Origin: a virus
Lineage: Duplodnaviria > Caudoviricetes
Reading direction: 5' to 3' (one strand)
IMG/VR virus record: IMGVR_UViG_3300036783_000170
Location: 1 to 64,000 of that record
DNA length: 64,000 nt
In this document: positions 10,628-51,222 of the stretch, piece after piece
Layout of the letters: each line of letters starts with the position of its first letter
Numbering within the stretch: position 1 is the first letter of the stretch
Made by a program: the position numbers and the translations under genes
The notes under the pieces: model-generated
The model's input: only the letters and a program-made list of their open reading frames with translations
Database searches by the model: none
What the model was told of the DNA's origin: nothing

Positions 10628-11497
10628 ATGGAAGGCCACTACTGCCCCGCGTGCGGGGAGGACGACCAGCGGGACCGGCTCGTGGTCGCGGGCACCTGGA
10701 TCTGCGGCACCTGCTTCGAGGTCCACCCCCGCGAGCCCGACCTGGAGCCGGCGTCGTGACCTCGCCCGACTACCCGTACACCATCTGGTCCGAGCCCTAC
10801 CCGGGCGCCCAGCCCGAGCAGCTGGACCGGGACGGGCTGCGGTTCGTGGGCGAGTACTCGCGCCGCGAGCCCGCCCAGGCCGAGGCGCTAGAGCGCGCCC
10901 GCCTGTACCGGGTCCGGCACGTCGTGAGGGACGAGCTGGGCATGACCATCAGCGAGCACCTACCCCCAGAGGAGAGCGAGTGAGCACCCTGTACCCGTAC
11001 CGGGTCGTGCGGCCGGGCGACGAGGACGCGCCGTCCACGATCGTCAGCATCCAGCGCACCGAGCGCGAGGCCCGCGAGCAGGCCGACCGGCGCACCCGAG
11101 CCACCCGCGTCGAGCACTACGTGCTGGATAGCTGCGGGCGCCGGTCCTACACCGCAGGGCTGGTGGCGTCGTGAGGTACCGAGTCGAGCGCCGCTCTCCC
11201 GACGCCCGCGCCACCGTCAATGAGTCAGACACGTGGGCCGAGGCGGTAGAGAGTGCCCGACGGGTCGACGCTGCCATCGTCAGCTCAGACCCCGTCGTGG
11301 TCGTAGACGTGCCGACGGGCGCTGTCGTATACGACACGCACGACGCACGTAACCCGGTAGAGGTAGGGATCGACCGCGTGGCGTGGATCGCCAAGGGCGA
11401 CCAGTACTTCGCGCAGGCCGAGGCCGGTGACGGCCGGGAGTGGGTCATGGCCAACGCCATGCTGGCCGCCGCCGCGTACGCCAGGGCCGCGCTGTGA
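10628..11497 (+). CDS. small hypothetical proteins (10628-10759, 10756-10983, 10980-11174, 11171-11497)
   Basis: GTGA-coupled ORFs downstream of the promoter repeat. Confidence 0.55.
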
Positions 11498-12369
11498 CCG
11501 GCCGGCACCGCGCCGAGGACCCGCCGCGACCCTCGCTCCGGGAGCGGCTCCTGGCGGCCTTCACGATGACCGCCACGATGGTGTCGGTGGTGGCGCTCAG
11601 CTGGGCGCTGGCCCCCGTCAGGAAGGTCGACGCGGGCTCGCCAGTGGCGTCCGCCCCGCTGCCGTCGCTGGCCGACCCGGCGAAGAAGGAGATCGCGATG
11701 CAGCTGGTCTCCTCCGCCGAGAACAGCTCGCTGGACTGGCGCGCCCAGTACGGGTACATCGAGGACATCGGCGACGGTCGCGGGTACACCGGCGGGATCG
11801 TGGGCTTCTGCTCCGGCACCGGCGACATGCTGGCGCTGGTGCGGTACTACGGCACGATCGCCCCCAAGGCGGGCCTGCTGCGGTTCCTGCCGGCCCTGAA
11901 GAGGGTCGACGGCACCGCCAGCCACGCCGGCCTCGGGAGCGCGTTCGTCGCGTCCTGGAGGGCCTCGGCGGCCAACGCGGCCTTCCGGGCGGCCCAGGAC
12001 CACGAGCGGGACCGGGTCTACTTCAGCCCCGCCGTCTCCCAGGGGGTCGCGGACCACCTCGGCGTGCTGGGGCAGTTCATCTACTACGACGCGCTGGTGA
12101 TGCACGGGCCCGGCGCCGACCCGGACAGCTTCGGCGGGATCCGCGCGGCGGCGCTGAAGAAGCAGAAGAGCCCGGCGCAGGGCGGCGGCGAGGTCGCGTA
12201 CCTGGACGCATTCCTGGACGCGCGCAAGGCCGCCATGCTCCGCGAGGAGGCGCACTCCGACACCAGCCGGGTCGACACGGAGCAGCGGGTGTTCCTGCGG
12301 GCCGGCAACCTGGACCTGCACACGCCGCTGTCGTGGAGCACCTACGGTGACCGGTACGTGATCCGGTGA
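11494..12369 (+). CDS. csn: GH46 chitosanase with N-terminal signal/TM segment
   Basis: KKEIAMQLVSSAENSSLDW..QYGYIEDIGDGRGYTGGIVGFCSGTGDML...YYDA.VMHG...DTSRVDTEQRVFL matches Streptomyces N174-type CsnA, with catalytic Glu and Asp intact. Confidence 0.93.
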   Translation: MTGRHRAEDPPRPSLRERLLAAFTMTATMVSVVALSWALAPVRKVDAGSPVASAPLPSLADPAKKEIAMQLVSSAENSSLDWRAQYGYIEDIGDGRGYTGGIVGFCSGTGDMLALVRYYGTIAPKAGLLRFLPALKRVDGTASHAGLGSAFVASWRASAANAAFRAAQDHERDRVYFSPAVSQGVADHLGVLGQFIYYDALVMHGPGADPDSFGGIRAAALKKQKSPAQGGGEVAYLDAFLDARKAAMLREEAHSDTSRVDTEQRVFLRAGNLDLHTPLSWSTYGDRYVIR

Positions 12370-29090: not shown

Positions 29091-31128
29091 ATGAATGACA
29101 CCTGCCCGACCTGCGGGCCCGGCTACCGGTACGGCGACGAGGGCTGCCGGCACGAGCCATCGCGCGTGTTCGACTTCCCGCTCCGGGTCGACCCGGAGGT
29201 GCCGGACGACGAGGTCCGCGTCGAGCCCCCGGAGGGGCTGACCGAGATCCAGCGGATCAACGCGCGGCTGGAGAGGCTGGAGACGTTCGTCCGGATCACG
29301 TCAGCCCACCACCCGCTCCGCGACCTGCCAGCCGAGCTGAACCGGGCCATGGTGGATAAGAACAATGCCGAGTACCAGCTCGGGTTCGTCCGGCACAAGC
29401 TTGCCAACGAGCAGGAGCGCTACGAGTCCGCCCGAGCGCGGGCGGCGGCCGCCGAGGCCGAGCGCGACGAGGGGAAGAAGGACCTCGACGCTTTCGTGTC
29501 GACGGTCAACCACGTCATTGAGATCCTTGACGGTGCGGGAGTCCCCGATGAGGGGCGTACCGTGCAGCAGCGAGTCGGCCAGCTCGTGCACATGTTCGAC
29601 CTCGCGCAGGCGCAGCATGTCGAGGTGGTCCGTCTCCTCAAGGCCGCCGAGGCCAAGCTGGCCAAGGTCGCGGACGGTAGACCGTGAGCCGGCATAGCGC
29701 CGACGACCGCCGCAGCGAGCTACGTGGCGAGGTCTGCGGGGTGGGGCACCCGGACCGGCCAGAGGTGCTCTGCGACAAGCACGTTCCATGTTTCGGCCAG
29801 CACTCCAGCGTGGCGCACCTGACGAGCTGGCCTGGCCGGTCGGTGCCCAACCGCAAGAGCAGGACGGTGGAGATGACGAAGATCGCCAACGCAGCAGCCC
29901 GGAGGACGACGTGAGCGACTTCTTCGACGGCCCCCTACCGACCGAGCAGGAGAAGGTCCTGCACCACCTGCGGGTCGGGAGCAGTGTGGATGTCAGTAAG
30001 AGGGCTCTCTCTCACCTGAGACTCCCCAGCGGCGTCCACAACGCGACGCTGGAGGTCTCCGACCAGGAGAGGTTCATCCAGGACGAGCTGGCGTTCAAGC
30101 TCACCGCCTACGTGCTGGCCGACCACCTGCCCCCGGAGCGGTACGAGGCCGGCACGGTGGTGGAGTTCAAGCAGCCGGCGTCCTGGTGGCAGCACTGGAA
30201 GCTGGCCCACTCTCGCGGGCGCCTGCTCGGCTGGGTGGCTCGGCGGTGGCCCGTCCAGATGCTCACCGTGACCGAGCCCGTCACGCTCGCCGTGGACCTG
30301 CACAAGGCGTACGCGTTCCCCGAGGCGCCCTCGATGGAGTGGCCCCACGAGCAGCTCGGCCGGCCGGTGCGGATGCACTACCTGAGGACCGAGTTCTTCG
30401 GGACCGAGTCGCGCTTCGAGGTCGAGTGATGGCTGCCGGGCAGATCTTCACCCTGGTGATGCTGGCGATCGTCGCGATCTGCTACCTGGTCTTCTTGCGG
30501 GTCGCCTGGAAGGCCCGGCACGAGCACAAGCGTAAGTTCCCCGTCGAGGCGGACATCGTGGAGGAGGAGCGCGACCTGTGAGCGAGGAGGAGACCACGGC
30601 GAAGATCGCCGCGCTGTACGACGTGCCGGTGGAGATCGTGCAGGACTACTACGGCCTGCATCAGTTCCAGAGCGACACAGAGGCGCTCGGTATGAAGATC
30701 GTGAACGAGGAGGTCGCCGCCGTCGAGGAAGTCGTCAGAGAGCGGCTGAAGAGGCTCGGTCGGTGATGGCTGACTTCGCCGATGGTCTCGACGTGGTGGC
30801 CAATGTGTTGACGGTCCCGTGGTGGGTCTTCATCTCCATCAGCATCGCCGACACCTTCGGCTCCAAAGGATCGGGACTCAGGCGCGTGACGAGCTGGCTG
30901 GTCGTGGAGATGCTGCCGTGGGCCATATTGATAGTGGCCGTCGAGACCGCCGACTCCCTGGTTCGCCATAGGTGGGTATCGGCAGTACTGAACGGCGTCA
31001 TCCTCGTCTTGTACCTGCTGCGCTGGCACCATAACGACGACGACCGGTGGAAGCGCAGGCGCCGGAGGCTGGTCGAGAAGGTCAAGCAGCTCGGCTCCCG
31101 GCTGGTGGTCGCGCCCAGCGAGACGTAG
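29091..31128 (+). CDS. hypothetical proteins (29091-29687 coiled-coil, 29911-30429, 30429-30581, 30578-30766, 30766-31128 membrane)
   Basis: Coupled ORFs; 30766 has three hydrophobic segments. Confidence 0.6.
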
Positions 31129-31130
31129 CA

Positions 31131-31162
31131 CTGTCCTACCTGCTGACCCACCTCCGAATGAG
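31131..31162 (+). promoter_or_regulatory. putative late promoter CTGTCC-N18-CGAATGAG
   Basis: Sits at the boundary into the head module; same spacing recurs upstream of other virion genes. Confidence 0.65.
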
Positions 31163-31170
31163 CAAGGGAG

Positions 31171-31917
31171 GTGGGTCGCTTGCGTCATGACGCGGCACGA
31201 CCGAAGAAGCTGGTCGCCGAGGACCAGGAGTCCACGGCGGCGGAGCCGATGAGAGGCAGCCAGCCGTCCGTGCGCCGCAACCCCTCCACAGATCAGAAGA
31301 AGACGCGCCGGCAGATGCAGCGATCCCAGCAGAGGACCGCCATCAGCGTCTGCGCGGCCTGTCAGGCGTCGTCAGCCGGACCCTGCCAGTCATGCGGCTG
31401 CACCCTCGTCACGAGGGCGACCGTGCTCCCTACCAACGCGGAGCGACTGCAGTCGGGCCACGTCCTGCGGCTGCCGTCCGGCCAACGGGTCAAGGTCAAG
31501 GGCGTCAGGCCGCACGAGAACAGCGGCGGCCACCTGTACCTGGACACCGACATAGGCACCAGCGTGGTGGACCGCAAGGCCCAGTTCCACGTCATGCAGG
31601 GCGACGCCGCCGAGCGCGGCGCCCCGTTCAAGCAGCCGACCAACCGCGAGACCCCCGGCAACTTCAACACCAACCTGGCCGAGTCCACGGAGAAGCCCGA
31701 GGCCGCCCCGGCGGCCGGCAAGTGCCCCAACTGCGGCAAGGGTCCGCTGGTCAACCACGGGGGCAAGATGGTGTGCCGGAACTGCGGCTACACCAGCTCC
31801 GGCGGCGACTCCGACTTCGGCGACGCAGGGTACCGACGCCCCACCGCCTTCCTGCACGACGGCATGACGGCCGTAGCCCGGCGAGCCCAGACGCTCGTGG
31901 AGAGGACAGAACAGTGA
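31171..31917 (+). CDS. head-module protein with Zn-ribbon motifs
   Basis: CAAC...CQSCGC and CPNCG...CRNCGY; first gene after the late-type promoter. Confidence 0.65.
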   Translation: MGRLRHDAARPKKLVAEDQESTAAEPMRGSQPSVRRNPSTDQKKTRRQMQRSQQRTAISVCAACQASSAGPCQSCGCTLVTRATVLPTNAERLQSGHVLRLPSGQRVKVKGVRPHENSGGHLYLDTDIGTSVVDRKAQFHVMQGDAAERGAPFKQPTNRETPGNFNTNLAESTEKPEAAPAAGKCPNCGKGPLVNHGGKMVCRNCGYTSSGGDSDFGDAGYRRPTAFLHDGMTAVARRAQTLVERTEQ

Positions 31918-34280
31918 CCACCCGAGCAGACATCTTGCGGTCCATCAACGCGGCCCGCTCCGGCGAGGAGCAGCGGCTAGCGGTGCTCGCCCTGGACGCC
32001 TACGACCGGCAGGTCGTCGCGCGCCAGCGGTCCGACCGAGAGCTGGACCTGACCAACCGCGTCGTCCAGGACCGGATGGTCGCGGTCGCCACGCACGAGC
32101 GGTCCACCATCCAGACCGACTGGCTCGGCGACGTGACCGCCTCGGCCGGACCGGACGCCGAGCAGAAGGTGATGGCCGAGGCCGCCCTCTGGTACCGGGG
32201 CACGCCGGAGATGGTGCGCCAGGACGCCGAGGAGTTCACCATCCAGGCGCAGGGCAAGGCCCGGCGCGTCGCCAGCGCGTACGGCGAGTCGGCCGAGGCG
32301 CTGGAGCGGTCGTTCCTGAACTACGTCGCGTTCCTGAGCCGGCAGGCAGCCAGCGGGCTGGACCAGGTCCAGCAGCTGGTGGACTCGCACGAGGACCCGA
32401 AGCGGACCCCGCTGCCGACCGAGGTCTTCGACACCTTCCAGCCCGAGGTCGACCCGGTCAACGCGGGCGTCACCGGCACCGAGACCTCCGAGCGCGCCCC
32501 GCTGATGCAGGAGATCATGCAGGGCGACGCGTACGGCGAGGGACCGGAGAAGCCGGGAGGGCACTCCACCAGCTTCGACGGCTCCGGCGGATACTCCGAG
32601 GTGCCCGCCGACGCCGCCGACGCGCACCGGACGGCGGCGGTCAACCAGCTGCTCACCCTCGATGACTACCGGCTGCAGTTCGCCGCCGAGGCCCGGAGGG
32701 CGGACCCAAAAGAAGGTAGCTCCCACGAGGGGCGCATCGACCACGAGACCAGCAGCGACGGGCCCCGGATCCCGAGCCTGCCCGGCGCCCCGTCGGACTC
32801 GAAGGCCCGCGAGTACCAGGACGAGTTCGAGGAGAACACGAAGAGGCTGCGGGACGAGTTCGAGGAGAACGAGCGCTCGCGCAAGCAGGGCGCGTCCGGG
32901 CTGGACGAGGTCCAGCAGGTCGTGAACCCGCACGAGGACCCCGCCCCGACGCCGATGCCGACGGACGTGGCCTTCCCGTGGGTGGACGGGCAGGACGAGT
33001 ACGAGCAGGACCACCCCGGCCAGAAGGCCGCCGTGGCCCGGCACCGGCTGGTGGCCTCGATCCTGAGCAAGGAGCCGGCCTCCGTCACTCGTGCTGAGCT
33101 GCGGGAAGTGCTCTCGTTCGCCAAGGACGTGCGCGGCGGCGAGTACGCCAGCACGATGGCGGCGAAGCTGGCCAGCGCCGACACCGGCCCGAGCACCTGG
33201 CACCAGGCCGTCTACCACCTCGGGGTGGCTGATCCTGAGGTCGCGCGTACTGCAGTCAAGAAGACCGCAGACCAGTGGACCGCGCCGCACGAGGTCCCCG
33301 GCGGCCAGGTCGCCAACTCGCCGGCCACCACGCCGGAGTCGTCGAAGGGCACGTACGCGGACGGGTACGCGGAGGGCGGCGAGGACGCCAGGTCCGGCGA
33401 GGCCCCCACCTTCGCGGACGCGTCCAGCCACGCTCCGGAGTTCGTCCAGGGCCACACCAAGGGCTACCAGGACGCCAAGCAGACCGTCGAGAAGGGCCTG
33501 CCCAAGGACGAGCCGGCCTCGATGGGCGGCCAGGCCGCGCAGACCCCCGGCGCCGACGCCACCAGTAACCCGTACGCCGACCCCGGCGGCCGGTCGTACG
33601 CGAGGAAGATCTCCAGCCTCGTCAGCACCACGGCGGCCCGGCAGGACGCGGACTTCCTCAAGGGCATGCGGTACGCCCAGAAGTGGCGCCCAGGGCGTCC
33701 GCTGGTGACGCAGGGCTCCGCCGAGTTCGAGGGCGGCCTGTACGCGGGCATCAGCGACAACGCCGACAACCAGTACGCCTGGGTCGCGGAGCACCAGCGG
33801 CTCGCCCGGCGGGACCAGCGGTTCGCGGACCGGATCAGTCGGCACGCGGAGTACAGCGAGACGGTGGCTACCGACCTGCGGGCCATGGTCGTCGGGCCGT
33901 ACCTGCGGCTGGAGGCGGCCACGTCCACCGACCTGGACACCACGGCGCCGAACACCAGCCCCAGCCCGGTCGGGGACACCCCGATCAACGGGCCCGGCAA
34001 GGTCCCCCCGCTGGCTGGCCAGGAGGACCCGGCCGCCGCTGGTGGACCTGCGCCATATAATTCAGCTCCTCCCTACGGCAAACCTGTGGTTCCGCAGGGA
34101 GAGATGGCTGCCGGTACAGGGTCAAATACGACCATCAATACCACCATAGGTGGTCCGATGGATCAGGCCGCTGAAGAACGTCGACGCATGCGCCCTACCA
34201 CCTTGGCCTTTAGGCATCGAGTACAAGCGTCTCTGGTGCAGGACCGTCAGGAGAGGGTGAATGCCAGCTCTCGCCCTTGA
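31914..34280 (+). CDS. large acidic head-associated protein (788 aa) with internal repeat and slippery site
   Basis: GTG 31914 coupled to the upstream stop; duplicated ASGLDxVQQxVxxHEDP.xTPxPT motif; C-CCA-AAA at 32705. Confidence 0.75.
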   Translation: MTTRADILRSINAARSGEEQRLAVLALDAYDRQVVARQRSDRELDLTNRVVQDRMVAVATHERSTIQTDWLGDVTASAGPDAEQKVMAEAALWYRGTPEMVRQDAEEFTIQAQGKARRVASAYGESAEALERSFLNYVAFLSRQAASGLDQVQQLVDSHEDPKRTPLPTEVFDTFQPEVDPVNAGVTGTETSERAPLMQEIMQGDAYGEGPEKPGGHSTSFDGSGGYSEVPADAADAHRTAAVNQLLTLDDYRLQFAAEARRADPKEGSSHEGRIDHETSSDGPRIPSLPGAPSDSKAREYQDEFEENTKRLRDEFEENERSRKQGASGLDEVQQVVNPHEDPAPTPMPTDVAFPWVDGQDEYEQDHPGQKAAVARHRLVASILSKEPASVTRAELREVLSFAKDVRGGEYASTMAAKLASADTGPSTWHQAVYHLGVADPEVARTAVKKTADQWTAPHEVPGGQVANSPATTPESSKGTYADGYAEGGEDARSGEAPTFADASSHAPEFVQGHTKGYQDAKQTVEKGLPKDEPASMGGQAAQTPGADATSNPYADPGGRSYARKISSLVSTTAARQDADFLKGMRYAQKWRPGRPLVTQGSAEFEGGLYAGISDNADNQYAWVAEHQRLARRDQRFADRISRHAEYSETVATDLRAMVVGPYLRLEAATSTDLDTTAPNTSPSPVGDTPINGPGKVPPLAGQEDPAAAGGPAPYNSAPPYGKPVVPQGEMAAGTGSNTTINTTIGGPMDQAAEERRRMRPTTLAFRHRVQASLVQDRQERVNASSRP

Positions 34281-34764
34281 TCACTCGCGTCATTTGCGTG
34301 GGACTGATGCCGTACTCTCTGGCCAGTCCTCGATAGGTGCCCGTGCCTTCGATGAATCTCCTTCGGACTTCGTGAACCTGATCCCAGGTGAGGATGGCTC
34401 GGCCGTGGTCTTCGCCGCGACGCAGGTGTCCTCCGTCTCGCCCCCGCTCGACTCTGTCCCTGACGTTTTGAGCGTTGTTGCCGAGATAGAGGTGGGACAG
34501 ATTTACGCAAGGTCGGTTATCACACCGATGGAGAACGTGCTCTTCGTCAGTGATCGCTGGAGCAACCATGATGCGGTAGATCCAGCGATGGGCTCGTACG
34601 ACTCGGCGCCGGTTACGGCTATGAGGGTTAGGTGCCCCTCCATGAAACTGCCCGTACCCCTTGGCGTCGGTATGACTTGTCCAAGTCCAGCAGGCGTCTT
34701 CGCCTCTCGACTTGTCGACCTTGATCCAGAAGCGGGCGAGAAGATCTTCAACGGTTGCCTCCAT
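34210..34764 (-). CDS. free-standing HNH homing endonuclease
   Basis: RFWIKVDK...CWTWT...GYGQF...RAHRW.Y...VLHRCDNRPCVN..HL.LG..AQNVRD..ERGR, plus C-terminal HTH (LAREYGISPTQMTRVI). Confidence 0.9.
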   Translation of the reverse strand: MEATVEDLLARFWIKVDKSRGEDACWTWTSHTDAKGYGQFHGGAPNPHSRNRRRVVRAHRWIYRIMVAPAITDEEHVLHRCDNRPCVNLSHLYLGNNAQNVRDRVERGRDGGHLRRGEDHGRAILTWDQVHEVRRRFIEGTGTYRGLAREYGISPTQMTRVIKGESWHSPSPDGPAPETLVLDA

Positions 34765-34793
34765 GGGTGCAACCTTACCTGGGGGAGGACCAC

Positions 34794-35336
34794 ATGTCTG
34801 ATGAGCTGAACGACCTGATGTGGGTGGAGGCCACGCGAGACCTGGAGTCCGAGGCGAGCGAGATGTCCGCCGAGCGGGCCAGGATCGCCAGCTCCTCGCT
34901 GTGGCCGTTCCTGGCCGCCGCCCGCTCCGAGCCCGAGTTCGACGGCCGCCTCAGCGTCGCCGCCGAGCACCTTGAGGCCGTCGCCGTCGAGACCGGCCAC
35001 CCCGTCGAGGCGCTGGCCGCCGACCTGCGGGGGCAGTGGCGGCTGCTCGCGGAGGCTCGCGGCTCCGACCCGGTCGACCACGAGGGGCACGACTACGACC
35101 ACGACGACGAGGACCCCGAGGGCGACGAGGAGGACGCGCAGAACGGCGCCGAGTGGGACAAGCACATGGGCTACAGCCCGTACGACCACTACGCGTCGCT
35201 GCGCACCGCCTTGGAGGAGGGCGTCGACCCGCTCTCCTGGGTGGAGGACGAGGCGGAGTACGGCTCCGGAGCCGAGGAGGTAGGCGGCCACCAGAGCGGC
35301 GCCACCGCGTCCCGGGACGCCGACCCAAAAGCCTGA
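34794..35336 (+). CDS. head-associated protein, short form (180 aa)
   Basis: RBS GGGGGAGG; LWPFLAAARSEPEFDGRL motif; ends GAC CCA AAA GCC TGA. Confidence 0.75.
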   Translation: MSDELNDLMWVEATRDLESEASEMSAERARIASSSLWPFLAAARSEPEFDGRLSVAAEHLEAVAVETGHPVEALAADLRGQWRLLAEARGSDPVDHEGHDYDHDDEDPEGDEEDAQNGAEWDKHMGYSPYDHYASLRTALEEGVDPLSWVEDEAEYGSGAEEVGGHQSGATASRDADPKA

Positions 35337-36409
35337 GCCCCGTGCAGGGGCAGGGTCCGGTATCGGACACCAACGTCCCCCAGGACCCAGGCGGGTCCGG
35401 CGCGGGGATGGCCCCGATGCCCGACTCGGGCGTGCCTGGCGGGGGCGCCCCAAGCAGCGGCGGGGGCAGCGACTTCGACCCCGCGTCCCTCGCGGGCGCG
35501 AACGCCAACACGACCCCCGAGGGCACCCAGTCCGACATGACGGGCCGGATGCTCAACTCCGCCATGCTGGTGGCCGCCGCGAACCCCGAGCTGGACGACG
35601 AGGCGTGCGCGACCCTCGCGGTCCTGGCCGGCCGCCGGCTGGCCGCGAACCCGCTGGGGTACGGCCACCGTCCGTCCGTGGAGGGCCCGCTCACGCAGCG
35701 GGTCAAGAACCGGGTCAACGAGCTGGTCAGCGGCGAGTACCAGAGGCGACACCAGCCGCGCCCGCAGGGCCGCCCGAGCGGGCAGCCCGGCGCGGGCAAG
35801 GGCGTCCGCCCTACCCCGCGCCCGGCCCCGAGCGTGGGCGAGCAGCTGCTGAACCTCGTCCCCCTCAAGCCGCACGAGCGCAGGCTGGTGGACGGCATCC
35901 GGGGGCTCATCAAGAAGCACCGCGACCGGGCGGGCAACCCTCCTCCTCCGCACCACAACGCCCCTCCGGTACCGGCCCCGCCGTGGCTGGACGAGGACGA
36001 CCAGGAGGACGTCGACCGGCCCGACGAGCAGCCCCGGCCGGCCGCGCCTGGGGTGCTACCTCCGGGGGCTAGCCCCCACGACTTGAACGGTGACGACGAG
36101 GGCTCGTCCGAGGGCGAGTCCAGCGGCAGCAAGGCCGCCGTGCGGCACCAGGCCGACAACCCGCTGGACTTCGGCAACCGGGCGCCGGTGCCGGAGGGCC
36201 CGCTCGAGCAGAAGGCGGTCGACTCCATCAACGAGGCGGAGGACGCGGTCCCGATGCCCGGCGACACCTCGAAGGTACCGGGCATGGGGGGCGGCAAGGG
36301 CTCCGGAGGCAAGGCGCCGGAGGGCGCTGGTGCCGGCGCGGGCGAGGCGGCCGGCGGCGAGGCGGCCCTGGGCGAGGTGGGCGAGCTGGCCCCGATGATC
36401 GCGGTCTGA
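35330..36409 (+). CDS. -1 frame extension of the 34794 gene (or separate gene without a clear RBS)
   Basis: Open -1 frame begins at the slippery heptamer; Pro/Gly/acidic content like other head proteins. Confidence 0.6.
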   Translation, partial: SLSPVQGQGPVSDTNVPQDPGGSGAGMAPMPDSGVPGGGAPSSGGGSDFDPASLAGANANTTPEGTQSDMTGRMLNSAMLVAAANPELDDEACATLAVLAGRRLAANPLGYGHRPSVEGPLTQRVKNRVNELVSGEYQRRHQPRPQGRPSGQPGAGKGVRPTPRPAPSVGEQLLNLVPLKPHERRLVDGIRGLIKKHRDRAGNPPPPHHNAPPVPAPPWLDEDDQEDVDRPDEQPRPAAPGVLPPGASPHDLNGDDEGSSEGESSGSKAAVRHQADNPLDFGNRAPVPEGPLEQKAVDSINEAEDAVPMPGDTSKVPGMGGGKGSGGKAPEGAGAGAGEAAGGEAALGEVGELAPMIAV

Positions 36410-36411
36410 GC

Positions 36412-36882
36412 GTGGTCAACGACGGCGACGAGGTCTTCTACTCAGGCTACGAGCGCGCGGGGGCGCTGGTGGGCGACCACGGCCAGGTGCTGGCCTCCAG
36501 CGGGTCCGCAGCGCACGTGAAGTGGAGCACCGGCGCCCGCGCCGGCTCGGTGAGCCTGGAGCACCAGGACGACCTGGAGCCGCGCCGCGCCACCCGGTCG
36601 CTGCTGGCCGACAGCCTGGAGTACGGGGAGCTGCAGGTGGCCGCCGCCCGTAGCCGGTACGACGAGGCCGGCCCGCAGGGCGTGCTCTCGATGCTGGCGG
36701 AGGACGGCCACCTGATGGCCTTCGCGGAGATCGCGGAGGAGGCGCTGGCGATGGTGGCGTATCGGGTGCGGCACGACCCGTCGGTGCGGGCCGCTACGGC
36801 GTCCCTGGACGACGACGAGGGCGAGCAGGTGGTGAGGGCCGCGTCGGCGGCCCTCATCTACGACGCGTTCAGCCTAGAGTGA
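36412..36882 (+). CDS. hypothetical head-module protein
   Basis: 156-aa ORF directly after 36409. Confidence 0.65.
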   Translation: MVNDGDEVFYSGYERAGALVGDHGQVLASSGSAAHVKWSTGARAGSVSLEHQDDLEPRRATRSLLADSLEYGELQVAAARSRYDEAGPQGVLSMLAEDGHLMAFAEIAEEALAMVAYRVRHDPSVRAATASLDDDEGEQVVRAASAALIYDAFSLE

Positions 36883-37168
36883 GCGTCCGCTCGGCGGCCG
36901 CGACCCGGGGGTCGTCGTGGCGCGAGCTGTCGAGCAGGTAGTTCTCCAGCTCGTCCATCTCCTCGATGTCGTCCCGAGTGACGTGCCGCAGGGTGGCCCA
37001 GGAGCCGTCGTCCTGGCGCTTCTGGATGTCGGCCTCGGCGCCACGACTCAGCAGCCCGACGGTCTCGTTCAGCGCCTGCCACAGGCCCTCGGGGGCCGGG
37101 GCCTTGCCGTTGACGCCGTTCGGGTACTCGAAGCTCACTCGGTAGCTGAGTCGCTGTCCACGCTTCAT
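36869..37168 (-). CDS. hypothetical protein inserted antisense, with its own promoter
   Basis: RBS GGGAGAG and a promoter repeat upstream on the minus strand. Confidence 0.65.
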   Translation of the reverse strand: MKRGQRLSYRVSFEYPNGVNGKAPAPEGLWQALNETVGLLSRGAEADIQKRQDDGSWATLRHVTRDDIEEMDELENYLLDSSRHDDPRVAAAERTLTLG

Positions 37169-37234: not shown

Positions 37235-37418
37235 GTCCTCCGAGACATCCACTGGAGCAGTAGGGCGACCTCGACGTACTCGACGGCCCAGTCCTCGTCG
37301 TACCAGCGCTCGACCACGCGGCCTCCTGGTCTTAGGTCCTACGTCCAGTAGTCGACGTAGCCCCACGGCGGATGAGTGTGACCTGCCTCACCGTTTTAAA
37401 CGATCTGCCACTTACCTA

Positions 37419-37450
37419 CTGCCCGCCCGGTGCCGAGCCCGGCGTAATAG
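37419..37450 (+). promoter_or_regulatory. putative late promoter variant CTGCCC-N18-CGTAATAG
   Basis: Precedes RBS GGAGG and ATG 37465. Confidence 0.5.
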
Positions 37451-37464
37451 GCAGGAGGTGGGGC

Positions 37465-38752
37465 ATGCCGAAGTACCCCGTCAACGACCGTAAGTGCGAG
37501 GACTGCGGCGAGCGCGTCCCGCCGGGCACGCCACGCCGGACCTCGGACGGCCAGCTCGTGTGCTCGAAGTGCTTCACGCGCCGGTCCGCCATGACCCTCT
37601 ACCGCCAGGCGGCCGAGCAGTACCCGACCTCGGAGCCGGTGGCCCCCTCGCGCCCTGACTGGCGCCAGGATGCCGCCAGGGCCCGCACCGCCGCGCTCGT
37701 CAAGAGGGCGCACGATTCGGGCAATCAGGTAGATATCTACCACTGTCCGTTCTGCGGCAGCGGTCAGGTCGTGGGTAGATCTGACCGGACCGTCGAGTGC
37801 ACGTTCTGCAACGCCGTGTTCACCGTCCAGGTCCAGCCGATGTACTCCGGCGTCCCGCAGACCATCGACGGCGAGTCCGTCGAGGAGCCCGGCGCCCCGG
37901 GGATGGATGGCGAGCCAGACGTGGCCGGGGACGAGATGCTCCCCGAGGAGCAGGGCACCATGAACGGCCAGCTGCCCCCCGAGGAGGACGCGGACCAGGA
38001 CGGCGAGCCCGACGACGAGGAGGGCGACGACGAGCCCGCGTTCCTGAAGGGCTCGATGCTGCGGACCGCCAACGGCACCCCCGTGCCGATCCCCGACCTG
38101 ATCAACCACATGGCGCTGCTCCAGGCCACCGACGAGGAGCGGCCGGCGATCCTGGCCCGCATCCGCGAGGAGCGCGCACGATGACCCGGTACCGCGCGGC
38201 CGTAGACATGCGCCTGCCTGGCCAGTCCGTCAGCCGCGACGACGTGCTGGACATGGACACCTCGACCGCCATCGCCCGCAGGGACGTGGAGGGCATGGTC
38301 TCTCGCGGGCTCCTGGTGGCCGTGGAGGACGAGCAGGACCAGCCACCGGAGCAGGAGCCCGACTCAGCGGCCGAGGAGCGCATGTCGACTCCTCGGGGCC
38401 GCAAGAGGGGGCGCTGATGAGCGCGCCCCCGTCGATGCTCGCCCTCGTCCGCGACGGGAAGATCGACATCCCGTTCCTGTGCGTGGAGCGGGAGTGCGAG
38501 GGCAGCCGCTACCACACGCCGACGCCGCTGGAGGTCGCGCCGTACCTGTTCCACGTGGACGACATCGCCGCGTACTACGGCCCGTCCACGAGCGACGCGA
38601 CCTGGCTATGCGGCACCTGCGCGGCCAACCTCCGCGTCTTCTTCGGGCTGATGCGCGGCACCGACGGCAGCATGCCCTGGGAGGTCCAGCGGGAGTTCGG
38701 CAACGGCATCCGCCGGATCGGCAAGATGATGTGGAGGGCAGCTGATGCCTGA
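37465..38752 (+). CDS. three pre-portal genes (37465-38184 Zn-finger/acidic, 38181-38417, 38417-38752)
   Basis: CEDCG..C.KC and CPFCGSG...ECTFC motifs; coupled to the portal. Confidence 0.65.
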
Positions 38753-40979
38753 GCGCCGCAGGAGGAGGGTCGTACGCGCCCCCCAGGCGTCCCGACGCGC
38801 GTCGGTGGCGCAGCAGCAGGCCACCTTCGCCCAGCTCGCCTCGGCCGCCCGTAGGGGCGGCTCGCAGGCCGTGGAGGGGCAGGAGGCGGAGCTGGCCGAG
38901 ATGGCCAGGTCGCGCCGGCGTATCGCGGTGGCCTCGGGCGCCGGGTCGGCCCCGTACGGCGGGGGCGGCAGCGTCAGCTTCGCCACCGGGCGGCCCCGAG
39001 ACCCGTTCTTCTACTGGCGGCAGAACAACCTCTTCTACGACTTCGAGGACAACACCCAGCTGACTCGGGTGCGGCAGTTCTGCCACCTGCTGTACACGAG
39101 CCACTCGCTGATCGGGTCCTGCGTCGACATCTACACCGAGTACCCGCTGCTCGGGATGGAGCTGCGGTCGAAGGACGACAAGATCACGGACTTCTACTCA
39201 GATCTTTTTATGTCGCCGCGCCGGCTGAACTACCCGAAGTTCTTGGCCGACCTCGGCCGGTCGTACTGGCTGCTCGGCGAGGCGTGGCCGTTCGGCTCCT
39301 TTAACGAGAAGCTCGGCGTCTGGGAGGACGAGGAGCTTCTCAACCCGGACGACATCGACGTGGAGCGCTCCCCGTTCCAGCGGGAGCCGCGCTACCTGAT
39401 GCGGCTGCCCTCGACGCTGCGCGAGCTGCTGCAGAGCCGCTCCCCCGCGTACGAGTACCAGAAGCTGATCCAGGCGTACCCGGAGCTGGTTCGGTACCAG
39501 AACGAGGCGGAGATGATGCCCGTCAGCGGCATCCTGCTCCGGCAGCTGAAGTTCGACGGGCTGATGTTCAACAAGCGCGGCATCCCGCTGCTCAACCGGG
39601 CGCTGCGCCCGATCGTGCAGGAGGAGATGCTCAACTCGGCGATGGACGCGATCGCCGATCGGCTGTACGTGCCGCTGCTGATCGCCAAGCTCGGGGCGTC
39701 CGCCAACGACCTGGGCACCGAGGTACCGTGGATCCCCACCGAAGACGACATGGCCGCGTTCGAGGAGACCGCCGACGCCGCGCTGGCCGCCGACTTCCGG
39801 CTGCTGATCACCAACTTCGCCACCAGCGTGGAGTCCGTGTTCGGCCGGGAGCAGATGCCGGACCTGACCGCCGACTTCGAGCGCATCGAGGACAAGATCC
39901 TCCAGACGTTCGGGCTCTCTAAGACGATGCTCACCGGGGCGAGTTCAGGCGAGACGTACGCGGCGGACGCGCTCAACAGGGACCTCATCAGCCAGATGCT
40001 GACCCGGTACCAGCGGATGCTCTCCGACCACTACGAGGAGCGCGCGCTCGTGGTCGCCGAGGCGCAGGGGCACTTTGATTACGAGGAACGCGGCGGTAAG
40101 AAGTACGTCAAGATGGAAGAGATCCTCGAAGTGGACGAGGAGAGCGGCGAGGAACGAATCATCCAGCAGCCCAAGCTGCTCATCCCAGAGCTTCGCTTCA
40201 AGACGCTCAACCTGAAAGACGAGGAGGCCGAGCGGGCCTTCTACGAGCAGCTCCGCGAGGCCGGCGTCCCGATCTCCATGAAGACGCGGCTGATCAACGT
40301 GCCCATCGACCTCCAGGACGAGATGGAGATCAGCCAGGACGAGCAGGTCCAGCTCGCGGTGAAGGAGCAGGAGACGAGAAAGGCGATCTTCCTGGCGCTC
40401 CGTCAGAAGGGGCTGCCGATCCCAGCGGACCTGCTGGCGGACTTCAGTCCGCAGATCAACCCTCTCCCGCAGCCGGCGGACATGGCCAGCCGGGTGCCGA
40501 TGCTCGGTATCGACCCGCTGACCGACACCCCGAACCTCGCCCCGACCGGCGAGGACCTGGCCGCGCTGCCCACCGAGGGCACCGAGATCGCGGGCCAGCC
40601 CAGCCAGCCCGTGGAGCCGGTCGCGGTGATCGGCGGAGACGGCTCGATCACGCCGATGGGCGACCAGTCGCAGCGACCACCGGAGAGTGACGAGATGCGC
40701 GCCGACATGCCAAAGGCGGCGTCGATACTGAGCGAGGCCGCGCTGTGGCGGAACGCCAAGACGATGCGCCACGTGGTAGACGAGCAGCTCGGCAAGGTCT
40801 CGGACGAGATCGCTCGGCAGCGCGACATGCTGGTCACTGCGCAGGTGGTCCAGGGTCAGCACGAGGGCGACGAGACGCCGCCGTTGGACATGGAGCCCGC
40901 CGGACTCACAGGGCCGAGGCACGTTGGAATGCGTCGATACCTGGACATAGACGACACCGTACCAATGGAGGAGTGGTAG
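38745..40979 (+). CDS. portal protein (Bxz1/E3-like)
   Basis: 744 aa; IGSCVDIYTEYPLLGM, EAWPFGSFNE.LG.WE.EELLNPDD, RGIPLL.RA, DRLY.PLLIAKLG, REAGVPIS; position upstream of protease and capsid. Confidence 0.8.
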   Translation: MPERRRRRVVRAPQASRRASVAQQQATFAQLASAARRGGSQAVEGQEAELAEMARSRRRIAVASGAGSAPYGGGGSVSFATGRPRDPFFYWRQNNLFYDFEDNTQLTRVRQFCHLLYTSHSLIGSCVDIYTEYPLLGMELRSKDDKITDFYSDLFMSPRRLNYPKFLADLGRSYWLLGEAWPFGSFNEKLGVWEDEELLNPDDIDVERSPFQREPRYLMRLPSTLRELLQSRSPAYEYQKLIQAYPELVRYQNEAEMMPVSGILLRQLKFDGLMFNKRGIPLLNRALRPIVQEEMLNSAMDAIADRLYVPLLIAKLGASANDLGTEVPWIPTEDDMAAFEETADAALAADFRLLITNFATSVESVFGREQMPDLTADFERIEDKILQTFGLSKTMLTGASSGETYAADALNRDLISQMLTRYQRMLSDHYEERALVVAEAQGHFDYEERGGKKYVKMEEILEVDEESGEERIIQQPKLLIPELRFKTLNLKDEEAERAFYEQLREAGVPISMKTRLINVPIDLQDEMEISQDEQVQLAVKEQETRKAIFLALRQKGLPIPADLLADFSPQINPLPQPADMASRVPMLGIDPLTDTPNLAPTGEDLAALPTEGTEIAGQPSQPVEPVAVIGGDGSITPMGDQSQRPPESDEMRADMPKAASILSEAALWRNAKTMRHVVDEQLGKVSDEIARQRDMLVTAQVVQGQHEGDETPPLDMEPAGLTGPRHVGMRRYLDIDDTVPMEEW

Positions 40980-45036: not shown

Positions 45037-45066
45037 CTGCCGCCACGTATCCGAGCCCGAGGAATG
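45037..45066 (+). promoter_or_regulatory. putative late promoter CTGCCG-N18-GGAATG
   Basis: Directly upstream of the protease gene. Confidence 0.55.
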
Positions 45067-47298
45067 GGTAAGGACACGGAGGTGGGCGGGATGCTGCGTA
45101 AGTTCGCGACCGCGATGGTGCTCGATAAGTTCGTGGTGCCAGCGGACGCCGGGGCCGAGGCCATGCGGCGGATCGCGCACCGGCACGAGTTCCAGTACGA
45201 CGTGAGGCCGGGCTACCTCTATGTCCGTTCTCGTATGATTAGTTCCAGATGTAACGACAACTACGACGAGTTCCCCGCAGAAGAGATCAAGAAGGCGTAC
45301 CGGACCTTCGTCGGCAAGCCCGTCTTCGTCAACCACAACAACGAGGACCACCGGCGCGCCCGGGGCGTGATCATCGACGCCGCCCTGCACGACGACCGGA
45401 ACCCCGACGGCACCCCCGACCTGTGGGTCGAGGGGCTGATGGAGATCGACGCCGTCCGGTTCCCGATGCTGGCCAAGGCCATCGTCGCCGGCCACGTGGA
45501 CCGCACCTCGATGGGCACCGACGTGGCGTTCTCCGTCTGCTCGATCTGCAACAACAAGGCCACCACGCCGCTGGAGTACTGCCGGCACATCCCCGCGCAG
45601 AAGGGGCGCCGGATCTTCCGCGCCAACCCGAAGACCGGCAAGAGGGTCGGCGTGCTGGTCCGGGAGACCTGCTACGGGCTCTCATTCTTCGAGAACAGCC
45701 TGCTGGTCGAGCCCCCGGCGGACCCGACGGCGTTCTTCACGGGCGTCGACGCGCGCGGGCTGAGCGCCCACGCCGCCCGGCACCCGGAGGCGCCGAAGGG
45801 CAAGCCGACCCCTAAGCGTCAGACCCCCGCCGCGCGCCGGCAGGAGGGCGAGCGGCTCGCGTCCCTGCGCGCCGTCGTCGCCGAGGGCGAGGAGGCTGGG
45901 CCGCCGCCGAACCACCGGCCGCAGGGCGACCCCGTGGTCCGCGAGGAGGCCGCCTGCGCGACCTGCGGCGGCGCGATCTTCCACTCAAAGAACGGCGACG
46001 TGTGGATCCACTCCGAGCAGACCGGCGGCGGGATGCCGCACCAGGCCAACCCCGGCGAGGAGGGGTACGACGGCGCCAGCGGCCAGATGGTCCCGCAGAA
46101 CAAGGCGTACGAGAGCCACTCGACCAGCAAGGAGTCGCACCTCTCCGACGGCGCGCACAGCGAGAAGGAGATGGACGACTACAACCGTGGCCGCCGGGTG
46201 GACCTGGAGGACCCGATCGACCTCAAGAGCCACCTGATGGAGACCCACGGCTGGGCTCCGGAGGACTTCCACCAGCACGCCATGGACCGCCACCACCCGG
46301 CGCTCGGGGACACCGACGGCGCGAGCCGGCCGTACACCAGCACCGAGGTCCAGCACATCCACGCGTTCGAGCACACCCCGGCCGGCGGCGGCCACGACTT
46401 CCCGGACGCCCGGGTGGAGGACGGCATGCACAGGCACGCGTCGCTGGTGGCCGAGGCCAAGCCGAAGTACGAGGACCCGGGCGAGCACCCGGCGATGAAG
46501 GCGCTCGGCCTGCACCCCGGCAACGTCGTCGGCCACTGGGACATGGCCACCGACGAGGAGAAGGGCCAGGGCAAGAACTGGTACGAGGACGCCCACCACA
46601 TCGCCAAGGCGATCGCGGGCGGCGACGCGCACAAGGGCGCGGGGGTGCTGGCCGCGTACTCCCCGCAGACCGCGTGGCCGGCGAACATGTTCAACGCGTC
46701 CCGGTCGTTCCGGGAGGGCAAGGCGATCGGCGGCAAGGGCTCCGGCGTGATGGCTTCTGGCCAGATGCGCGACGCCGCGCAGCGGATCATGAACGGCGAG
46801 CGGCACGAGGACGTATTCAAGGGCAACAAGATCAGCGACTTCGCGCACCTGATCGAGCACGGCGGCAACAAGGACGACAACGACCCGAAGGTCGTCGTCG
46901 ACCGACACGCGCTGTCGGTGGCCGCTGGCCGTCGGCTCCCGGAGACCGAGACGGGCCCCGCGCAGGCTGCGATCGCGAACCGCCACTACTACCAGCACGC
47001 GGTGGACACCTACCACCAGGCCGCGAAGCACATCAACGAGCGCGACGGCCGCACGGGCGAGGACCAGGTGAAGCCGCACGAGGTGCAGGCCGTCACCTGG
47101 CTGGCCCGGCAGCGGATGAACCAGAAGGAGGACCGCGACTCCGGTACCGCGATGGGCAAGGGCCGCGCGAGCGGCTTCGAGAAGGCGCACCAGCAGTGGC
47201 TGGAGCATGCCCGGAACCACTACGACGGGTTGGAAGGCAACATGCACATGGCCCTGCTGCGCGCGCCCAAGGAGTCCCAAAGGCGCACAGGTGCCTAG
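45064..47298 (+). CDS. capsid maturation protease fused to His/Cys-rich linker and C-terminal enzyme-like domain
   Basis: N-term RSRMISSRCNDNYDEFP.EEI..AY.TFVGKPVFVNH.N...ARGVI.D...TSMGTDV..SVCSIC.N...ETCYGL.FFENS.LVEPPADPTA (prohead protease-like); start may be ATG 45091. Confidence 0.78.
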   Translation: MGKDTEVGGMLRKFATAMVLDKFVVPADAGAEAMRRIAHRHEFQYDVRPGYLYVRSRMISSRCNDNYDEFPAEEIKKAYRTFVGKPVFVNHNNEDHRRARGVIIDAALHDDRNPDGTPDLWVEGLMEIDAVRFPMLAKAIVAGHVDRTSMGTDVAFSVCSICNNKATTPLEYCRHIPAQKGRRIFRANPKTGKRVGVLVRETCYGLSFFENSLLVEPPADPTAFFTGVDARGLSAHAARHPEAPKGKPTPKRQTPAARRQEGERLASLRAVVAEGEEAGPPPNHRPQGDPVVREEAACATCGGAIFHSKNGDVWIHSEQTGGGMPHQANPGEEGYDGASGQMVPQNKAYESHSTSKESHLSDGAHSEKEMDDYNRGRRVDLEDPIDLKSHLMETHGWAPEDFHQHAMDRHHPALGDTDGASRPYTSTEVQHIHAFEHTPAGGGHDFPDARVEDGMHRHASLVAEAKPKYEDPGEHPAMKALGLHPGNVVGHWDMATDEEKGQGKNWYEDAHHIAKAIAGGDAHKGAGVLAAYSPQTAWPANMFNASRSFREGKAIGGKGSGVMASGQMRDAAQRIMNGERHEDVFKGNKISDFAHLIEHGGNKDDNDPKVVVDRHALSVAAGRRLPETETGPAQAAIANRHYYQHAVDTYHQAAKHINERDGRTGEDQVKPHEVQAVTWLARQRMNQKEDRDSGTAMGKGRASGFEKAHQQWLEHARNHYDGLEGNMHMALLRAPKESQRRTGA

Positions 47299-50241: not shown

Positions 50242-51222
50242 ATGAGCACTGCGCTCGCCCCCAGCGGCCTGTACGGCAAGGTCGCCATCAAGAGCGACGA
50301 CTACGTCGCCGCACTGGAGCGGAAGCGGGCCTCGGGCCCGCTGGACCACACCCAGAAGGTCCGTCGCCTGGCGATGGTCCTCTCCGACCAGGTCGACGGT
50401 ATCCGCCGGCTCGGCGTCGGCATGGTCGGCCCGATCCAGCTGAAGCTGCGCTACCAGGGCATCACCCGCAACGTGCTGGTCGAGGACCCGGTCACCCCGG
50501 GCACCCCGGTCCAGTACGACGTGTGGGACGACCTGGGCCAGGCGTACCTCATGTCCAGCACCGACGGCGAGGTCCGCGTGACCCCGTTCGAGGGCAAGCG
50601 CGTGGACGTGAACTTCTTCCGGATCGCCTCGCAGCCCACGATCCGCAAGGAGGACCTGTACTACCTCCGGATCAACGCGGTGGAGCAGGTCCAGGACGAG
50701 ACCAAGCAGTCGATCCTCAAGCAGGAGGACAACCGGCTGCTGCAGATCCTGCAGGCCGCGATCACCGACTACGCCAGCCGGCCGGACCACGTGGTCACCC
50801 CGAACCACACGATCACCGAGGCGTCGGGCTACCTGACCCCCGGCTCGCTGTACTCGGCGGTCGCGATGACGGACCTGCACGAGCTGCAGTCGGCGCGGAT
50901 CCTGATCAACCCGTTCGACTTCCGGGACATGTACCGCTGGGATATCAACCAGACCGGCTGGGCCTTCAAGGACCGGGTCGTCGCGGGTGAGACCATCACC
51001 AGCTTCGGCGAGTTCCAGATCCAGCGGTCGATCATCGTCCCGCAGAACAAGATCTTCTTGACCCCGGAGCCGAACTTCCTCGGTGTCTTCCCGGTCCTGT
51101 ACTCCCTGGACGTGGAGGAGAACCACCAGGTCGCCAGCTTCATGAAGGGCTGGGTCTTCGATGAGATGGTCAATATGACCGTTTTGAACCCCAGGGGCCT
51201 GGCAGTGATTAACAAGGTTTAG
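50242..51222 (+). CDS. major capsid protein (Bxz1/E3-like)
   Basis: 326 aa; LGVGMVGPIQLKLRYQGI.RNVL.ED, EGKR..V.FFRIAS.P.I.KEDLY.LR, GWVFDEMV.M.VLNPRG. Confidence 0.85.
   Translation: MSTALAPSGLYGKVAIKSDDYVAALERKRASGPLDHTQKVRRLAMVLSDQVDGIRRLGVGMVGPIQLKLRYQGITRNVLVEDPVTPGTPVQYDVWDDLGQAYLMSSTDGEVRVTPFEGKRVDVNFFRIASQPTIRKEDLYYLRINAVEQVQDETKQSILKQEDNRLLQILQAAITDYASRPDHVVTPNHTITEASGYLTPGSLYSAVAMTDLHELQSARILINPFDFRDMYRWDINQTGWAFKDRVVAGETITSFGEFQIQRSIIVPQNKIFLTPEPNFLGVFPVLYSLDVEENHQVASFMKGWVFDEMVNMTVLNPRGLAVINKV

Follow-up and report, generated by a model that had tools for sequence, protein, structure and literature searches.

The question raised by this locus is whether a slippery heptamer lying in phase within a long gene upstream of the portal gene of an uncultured phage is used for programmed -1 frameshifting, so that a 788-residue protein and a much shorter product with the same N-terminus would be made from one gene, and whether the identical heptamer in the neighbouring gene is used in the opposite sense. 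The window (the whole stretch of DNA that was analysed, 64,000 nucleotides) covers the initial 64 kb of an IMG/VR virus record, linear and 74.5 kb long, from a soil metagenome, with a CheckV completeness of about 50% and a G+C content of 68%. Both genes are located 3–6 kb upstream of the portal gene (38745–40979), whose product holds ~40% identity to portals of cluster C mycobacteriophages and of Rhodococcus and Gordonia myoviruses; a protease–DUF7178 fusion (45064–47298) and the major capsid protein (50242–51222) are encoded further downstream. The features of the first gene, P0001, are as follows.

31914–34280, + strand: P0001 gene, 788 aa, GTG start, codon starts divisible by 3
32346–32438, + strand: internal repeat 1, aa 145–175, AASGLDQVQQ.VD..E.P..TP.P..V
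32705–32711, + strand: slippery heptamer C CCA AAA (site 1), phased as X XXY YYZ with the zero frame
32717–32719, + strand: -1-frame TAG, two codons past the shifted codons, which would terminate a 268-aa product
32889–32981, + strand: internal repeat 2, aa 326–356, first conserved element of the C-terminal module

The start codon of P0001 sits 7 nt after GGAGAGGA and can be fixed at the GTG at 31914, since the homologues begin with MTTRADIL. The protein is predicted to consist of helical domains connected through long disordered linkers (AF2 model, mean pLDDT 66), and the protein alignment of the family reveals two internal copies of the pattern ASGLDQ[VI]QQ.VD..E.P..TP.P, flanking a variable linker.

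At site 1 the zero frame reads GCG GAC CCA AAA GAA GGT AGC, whereas a slip of one base back would give CCC AAA AGA AGG TAG and a product of 268 aa ending in ...ADPKRR. The first-pass annotation had proposed exactly this arrangement, an in-frame GAC CCA AAA G in the upstream gene followed by AGA AGG TAG in the -1 frame, and both the codon phase of the heptamer and the predicted length of 268 aa are borne out by the sequence. The reading preferred here, with a probability of roughly 0.7, is that site 1 is a programmed -1 frameshift signal that yields an N-terminal 268-aa isoform beside the 788-aa protein. According to this model, most ribosomes would read through the site to produce the full-length protein, while a fraction would slip one base back on C CCA AAA, with the tRNA-Pro moving from CCA to CCC and the tRNA-Lys from AAA to AAA, add two codons (Arg-Arg) and stop at the TAG. 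The resulting isoform would comprise the N-terminal helical domain, repeat 1, and a helix ending at residue 263, so that free copies of the N-terminal module and copies joined to the C-terminal module would be made in a fixed ratio, after the logic of E. coli dnaX tau/gamma. In the neighbouring gene, a slip at the identical heptamer is proposed to have the opposite effect and to lengthen the product.

This downstream site (site 2) is contained in the following features.

34210–34764, - strand: HNH homing-endonuclease gene, 184 aa (phrog_1872, phrog_59 and others; PHROG E-values down to 5e-24)
34794–35336, + strand: downstream gene (P0002), 180 aa, ending ...ADPKA, the zero-frame product of site 2
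35324–35330, + strand: site 2, the second C CCA AAA heptamer; the zero-frame stop follows 3 codons later
35324–36409, + strand: -1-frame extension of site 2, open for 361 codons
35337–35351, + strand: hairpin GCCCC-GTGCA-GGGGC, 6 nt after site 2 (-15.5 kcal/mol with flanking pairs, z -1.6)

The identical 10-mer GACCCAAAAG is found at site 1 and, again in frame, at 35322–35331, and the R-x-A-D-P-K peptide that had been noticed at both sites is indeed encoded at each of them, as RRADPK at site 1 and RDADPK at site 2. The protein encoded in the -1 frame at site 2 (PKSLSPVQGQGP.SD.NVPQ) is conserved from the heptamer onward, before any start codon, and its indels come in multiples of three, which argues that the same cassette, 2.6 kb downstream of site 1, is very probably active there. 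The extension type of site 2 is present in the window's clade and in five other relatives (L012, L017, L029, L031, and L034). The HNH gene occupies about 510 nt between the two recoded genes and is absent from three close relatives (L002–L004), whose downstream gene begins directly at the stop of the upstream gene or overlaps it; the HNH gene is thus regarded as a mobile insertion.

A short motif, YG.G.E..GGH (YG.GPE..GGH), precedes both ADPK sites, at 32535–32573 (residues 207–219 of P0001) and at 35259–35297 (residues 169–181 of P0002), and L004 holds YGSGPEKP at site 2. Paralogy of the two short modules was considered and rejected (hhalign probability 0.25%), the only element shared being the short YG.GPE..GGH motif within the window's clade.

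Such heptamers are rare in this genome. CCCAAAA occurs only twice in the 74.5-kb contig when both strands are searched, both times on the + strand and in phase, and the whole contig contains 11 XXX(A/T)3N heptamers and nine occurrences of AAAA on the + strand. Both codons involved are rare, AAA representing 2.6% of the Lys codons and CCA 7.5% of the Pro codons (18,709 codons, + strand ORFs). The genome-wide count of in-frame CCA AAA that had been suggested as a check on rarity results in two CCA-AAA pairs among 34 Pro-Lys pairs, against 0.066 expected. Apart from these two sites, the + strand of the contig has a single in-phase A/T heptamer, T TTA AAC at 37395–37401, at codon 8 of an ORF (37372–38184) for a Lar/zinc-finger-like protein, where it may fall in the leader if the true start of this ORF is further downstream.

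Conservation of the site was examined in the DNA of four close homologues, with amino acid identities of 76% (L001), 66% (L002), 63% (L003), and 58% (L004). GAC CCA AAA G is kept in phase in all four, inside an otherwise variable linker, and its AAAA is almost the sole AAAA in their contigs. At the protein level, ADPK is conserved in the five closest homologues, within the variable linker between the two internal repeats. The -1-frame TAG is found at the same place in three of the four (L001–L003), even though the zero-frame residues differ (KEGS, KVGS, KAGS, KVAS), with a rare codon, GGT or GCT, supplying the T of the stop codon; L004 has its -1 stop 14 codons from the heptamer start. The conservation check proposed in the first-pass annotation has thus come out in its favour, with the rare-codon heptamer kept in 4/4 close homologues, which is more than the encoded protein would call for, and a -1 stop two codons on in 3/4. 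In a sliding window over synonymous sites, the window at site 1 ranks first (1.00), tied with others, with a codon-bias background of 0.70 that leaves this test little power.

Two other explanations of the local sequence were considered and rejected. Transcriptional slippage would require a longer run than the four A residues present here. An internal SD and start site at AAGAAGG is not conserved, the equivalent positions reading GAAGG, GTAGG, GCAGG, and GTAGC.

Beyond the close relatives, distant loci of 38–45% identity were collected from JGI/ENA metagenomes and IMG/VR, and among them other canonical heptamers are found, in phase and in the same linker. G GGA AAA is found in eight of them (L006, L008, L009, L013, L037, L039, L040, and L041), C CCT TTC in four (L017, L029, L031, and L044), and A AAT TTT in one (L060), while L012 has C CCT TTC about 50 aa after repeat 2. 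In every distant truncating case, a -1 stop follows 3–14 codons after the heptamer start, mostly at 4 codons; the background for -1 stops in these genes is 5.1% of positions within 4 codons and 1.0% at exactly 4, with a median distance of 74. Among the GC3-rich ORFs of all loci, in-phase A/T-type heptamers appear 71 times in 153,114 codons. The site 1 linker accounts for about 21 of them, and site 2, which lies within the next gene or at its end, for about 18; several of the remainder are not coding sequence but AT-rich motifs that immediately precede start codons. In a maximum-likelihood tree of the N-domain, the four heptamer types are scattered over six or more clades, and lineages devoid of a heptamer are interspersed between these.

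These data bear on the proposal that the heptamer in P0001 is a chance match, a passive copy of the site 2 cassette, or a regulatory DNA or RNA motif shared by both sites, with no recoding in P0001. Such a copy would account for the identical 10-mer and RxADPK peptide at the two sites, as well as for the YG.GPE..GGH motif that precedes both. However, it does not account for the other clades, which hold different heptamers in the same linker and always in phase, nor is chance easily reconciled with the 0.066 CCA-AAA pairs expected. A shared DNA or RNA motif, in turn, is excluded because the sequence of the heptamer changes while its X XXY YYZ form stays. Taken as a whole, this proposal is hardly credible.

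With respect to elements that might stimulate a slip at site 1, two candidates are found around the heptamer.

32695–32699, + strand: SD-like GGAGG, 5 nt upstream of the heptamer
32719–32733, + strand: possible hairpin GCTCC-CACGA-GGGGC, 5 bp (one G-U pair) with a 5-nt loop, 7 nt after the heptamer; marginal

The 5-bp stem and 5-nt loop that had been reported as common to both sites can be formed at each of them, by GCTCC-CACGA-GGGGC 7 nt after the first heptamer and by GCCCC-GTGCA-GGGGC 6 nt after the second. The hairpin at site 1 is present at the distance that had been described, but its stability does not exceed that of shuffled sequence (z +1.05 for 61 nt and -0.65 for 29 nt), and the weight placed on it in the first-pass annotation is not supported. 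L003 and L004 hold different, stronger hairpins 5–7 nt downstream of the heptamer (z -2.5 and -2.9), and across the family the downstream structure is inconsistent, being clear in L003, L004, L013, L041, and L053 and absent in several others. That site 1 has the weaker structure of the two sites would agree with a short form made in minor amounts. On the 5' side of the heptamer, CGGAG does not vary among the five CCCAAAA-type sequences. The SD-like element of dnaX, which stimulates the -1 shift, lies 10–14 nt upstream; at site 1, the GGAGG is placed at 5 nt, and not at about 10 nt as in the dnaX type.

On a related matter, a rare Gly codon pair, GGT GGT, is found 2–5 nt upstream of the G GGA AAA and C CCT TTC sites, and is conserved in eight relatives (L006, L009, L037, L039, L040, L029, L031, and L017). 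This pair, partly complementary to the anti-SD, may act as an upstream stimulator.

In the AF2 model, residue K266, encoded by the heptamer, directly follows a predicted helix (residues 249–263) and precedes a stretch predicted to be disordered (residues 267–292). This position, together with the weak stimulatory structure at site 1, would be compatible with rare codons that impose a translational pause at a helix-to-disorder boundary and so aid co-translational folding, with no meaningful frameshifting. A pause, however, needs only rare codons, and not the X XXY YYZ phasing that is kept here, which involves even the last base of the preceding codon (GAC, CAG/CTG, GCC/CGC, CCA). It also gives no reason for a -1 stop within 3–14 codons in 19/19 truncating cases, and leaves unexplained the two relatives in which the slip would extend the product (L053 and L064, see below). 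Pausing as the whole explanation is thus very unlikely.

The relatives differ further in how the junction between the two modules of P0001 is built. In L053 and L064, CCA AAT TTT lies 3–7 codons before the stop of a gene that encodes the N module only, and the -1 frame is open for 590–696 codons and encodes the C module, so that a slip would extend the product instead of truncating it. The same heptamer is found in the fused gene of L060, with the -1 stop three codons from the heptamer start. Site 2 exhibits a role reversal of the same kind: in L006, L008, and L009 the second gene is fused, and holds C CCT TTC with a -1 stop 4 codons from the heptamer start. At least nine relatives (L015, L016, L018, L019, L021–L023, L025, and L027) split the N and C modules into two genes that lie next to each other, are linked by coupled stop and start codons, and have no heptamer. 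Because these relatives encode the two modules separately, the free N module can be considered a natural state. In L007, a G-to-T change with respect to its sister L037 (about nt 4181) has turned G GGA AAA into G TGA AAA, which places a TGA in frame; this could reflect readthrough, loss or dispensability of the long form, a defect, or a sequencing error. Since roughly half of the fused homologues are without an A/T-type heptamer, the frameshift device is not essential to the P0001 family.

The role reversal predicted from these layouts is well documented among the relatives. The claim of the first-pass annotation that recoding sites act in opposite senses in neighbouring genes is also well supported, by the conservation in close homologues, by the presence of other heptamers at the same linker, and by the reversed layouts.

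The diversity of junctions also bears on the possibility that slippage does occur but the short product is a discarded by-product, so that the site would attenuate or tune the output of the full-length protein. The immediate -1 stop fits such a simple abort, and searches of Pfam, PHROG, PDB, and folds have assigned no function to either product. Attenuation is nevertheless unlikely: the split-gene relatives provide the N module with a gene of its own, the extension-type relatives make it the default product, and the cut at site 1 coincides with a predicted helix end and domain boundary. In the preferred reading, that of a programmed frameshift that yields a second isoform, we infer from the sequences that ribosomes would actually slip at site 1 and that the short form would be functional. 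It is a reasonable inference, in addition, that recoding at sites 1 and 2 would control the stoichiometry of the products.

Among the known systems that site 1 resembles in its layout is tau/gamma from E. coli dnaX, where a -1 slip on X XXY YYZ within a long ORF is followed by a near-immediate -1 stop to give an N-terminal short isoform. Unlike dnaX, site 1 has C CCA AAA as its heptamer (A AAA AAG in dnaX), a weak hairpin, and no SD-like element at 10 nt, and it belongs to an unrelated protein encoded in a phage virion-module gene. With G/GT from phage lambda, site 1 would share a conserved -1 slip in a late gene of a dsDNA phage that fixes a short/long ratio, with heptamers that vary between relatives. 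The known G/GT shifts always result in an extension, and are found between the tail tube and tape-measure genes, in small proteins. The genes described here lie upstream of the portal gene instead, and the slip at site 1 would be internal to, and truncate, a 788-aa protein; neither the position nor an extension near the end of a small gene, by which tail assembly chaperones of the G/GT type are recognized, is found at site 1. Truncating -1 frameshifts are also represented by alphavirus 6K/TF and cardiovirus 2B*, which involve eukaryotic ribosomes and RNA genomes and often protein or pseudoknot stimulators, and which resemble site 1 in the shift into a frame with an early stop that gives a shortened product. 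To our knowledge, few recoding sites are known in dsDNA phages besides the tail-chaperone pair, and truncating ones are rare.

Frameshifts in the capsid genes of T7 (10A/10B) and Lactobacillus phage A2 (cited in PMC10885494 as ref 41) likewise represent -1 frameshifts in a phage structural gene that give two isoforms with a common N-terminus. These shifts add a C-terminal extension to the major capsid protein, whereas the slip at site 1 would remove two thirds of a non-capsid protein. For dnaX, it has been pointed out that, where both products are wanted, a change as small as a single base can make the other product the one that depends on the shift (PMC5009743), and the P0001 family exhibits this product swap naturally.

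The locus is best read as a new gene family in which a known recoding mechanism would be employed in its less common, truncating sense, paired with an extension site in the next gene. In a broader proposal, whose chances of being correct are judged about even, a large, uncultured group of soil actinophages (about 150 kb) would possess a chain of modules formed by two adjacent virion-module genes, and evolution could move each junction of the chain among five states: fusion with a truncating slip, splitting with an extending slip, plain splitting, plain fusion, and interruption by an in-frame UGA. Such a natural series would point to selection for a fixed short-to-long ratio, and the locus would represent the first dnaX-like truncating frameshift with a documented role reversal in a structural module of a dsDNA phage. 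With dozens of natural variants of one junction, comprising four heptamer types, both topologies, split genes, and a stop codon, the P0001 family constitutes a good system for studying how frameshift efficiency and gene architecture trade places. The annotation of the region can also be corrected, as gene callers miss the predicted 268-aa isoform and report another gene where the extension continues past 35336, and attention is drawn to two proteins encoded next to the portal whose amounts seem to be under tight control by the phage.

The nature of these proteins has been approached by several searches. P0001, P0002, and P0003 gave nothing in Pfam or PHROGs, and P0001 belongs to no named family; a search of the ESM Atlas for function yielded nothing (best score 0.87), and neither Foldseek against the PDB nor a profile search of PDB sequences gave a match for these proteins. 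The label of head protein that the 788-aa product had received is consequently not supported by any Pfam, PHROG, PDB, or fold match, and that head components are what the recoding would balance is a conjecture. Among cultured phages, a megablast of positions 31000–37000 and a tblastn of P0001 against 50,697 phage records gave no match. Among the sequencing runs listed as containing this phage there is no RNA run, and the single run that contains it in full is probably the soil metagenome from which it came. Rhodococcus phage Finch gp12 and gp13 (799 and 526 aa), which occupy the same position upstream of the portal, were rejected as homologues, the hhalign probability being 0.2% and a corresponding heptamer being absent. 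A single-protein scan of IMG/VR with P0001 found no homologues, whereas an alignment-based scan of the same database did recover them, and P0001 counts 86 metagenomic homologues.

Some further observations concern the gene content of these phages and the second gene of the pair. A small RF-1-domain protein (PF00472) and a Thg1-like protein are encoded upstream of the recoded genes in L004 (2562–2930 and 2927–3733) and in the P0009 contig; no RF-1 domain was found in the partial (half) genome analysed here. The contig of this phage also contains a complete glycoside hydrolase family 46 (chitosanase) gene at 11440–12369 (Pfam E 2e-92). Finally, in L012 (nt 2864 and 3311) and L036 (nt 4873 and 6235), the second gene has one in-phase heptamer that is soon followed by a -1 stop and another at its end, from which the -1 frame is open over a long stretch; this suggests that three products could be made from one gene.
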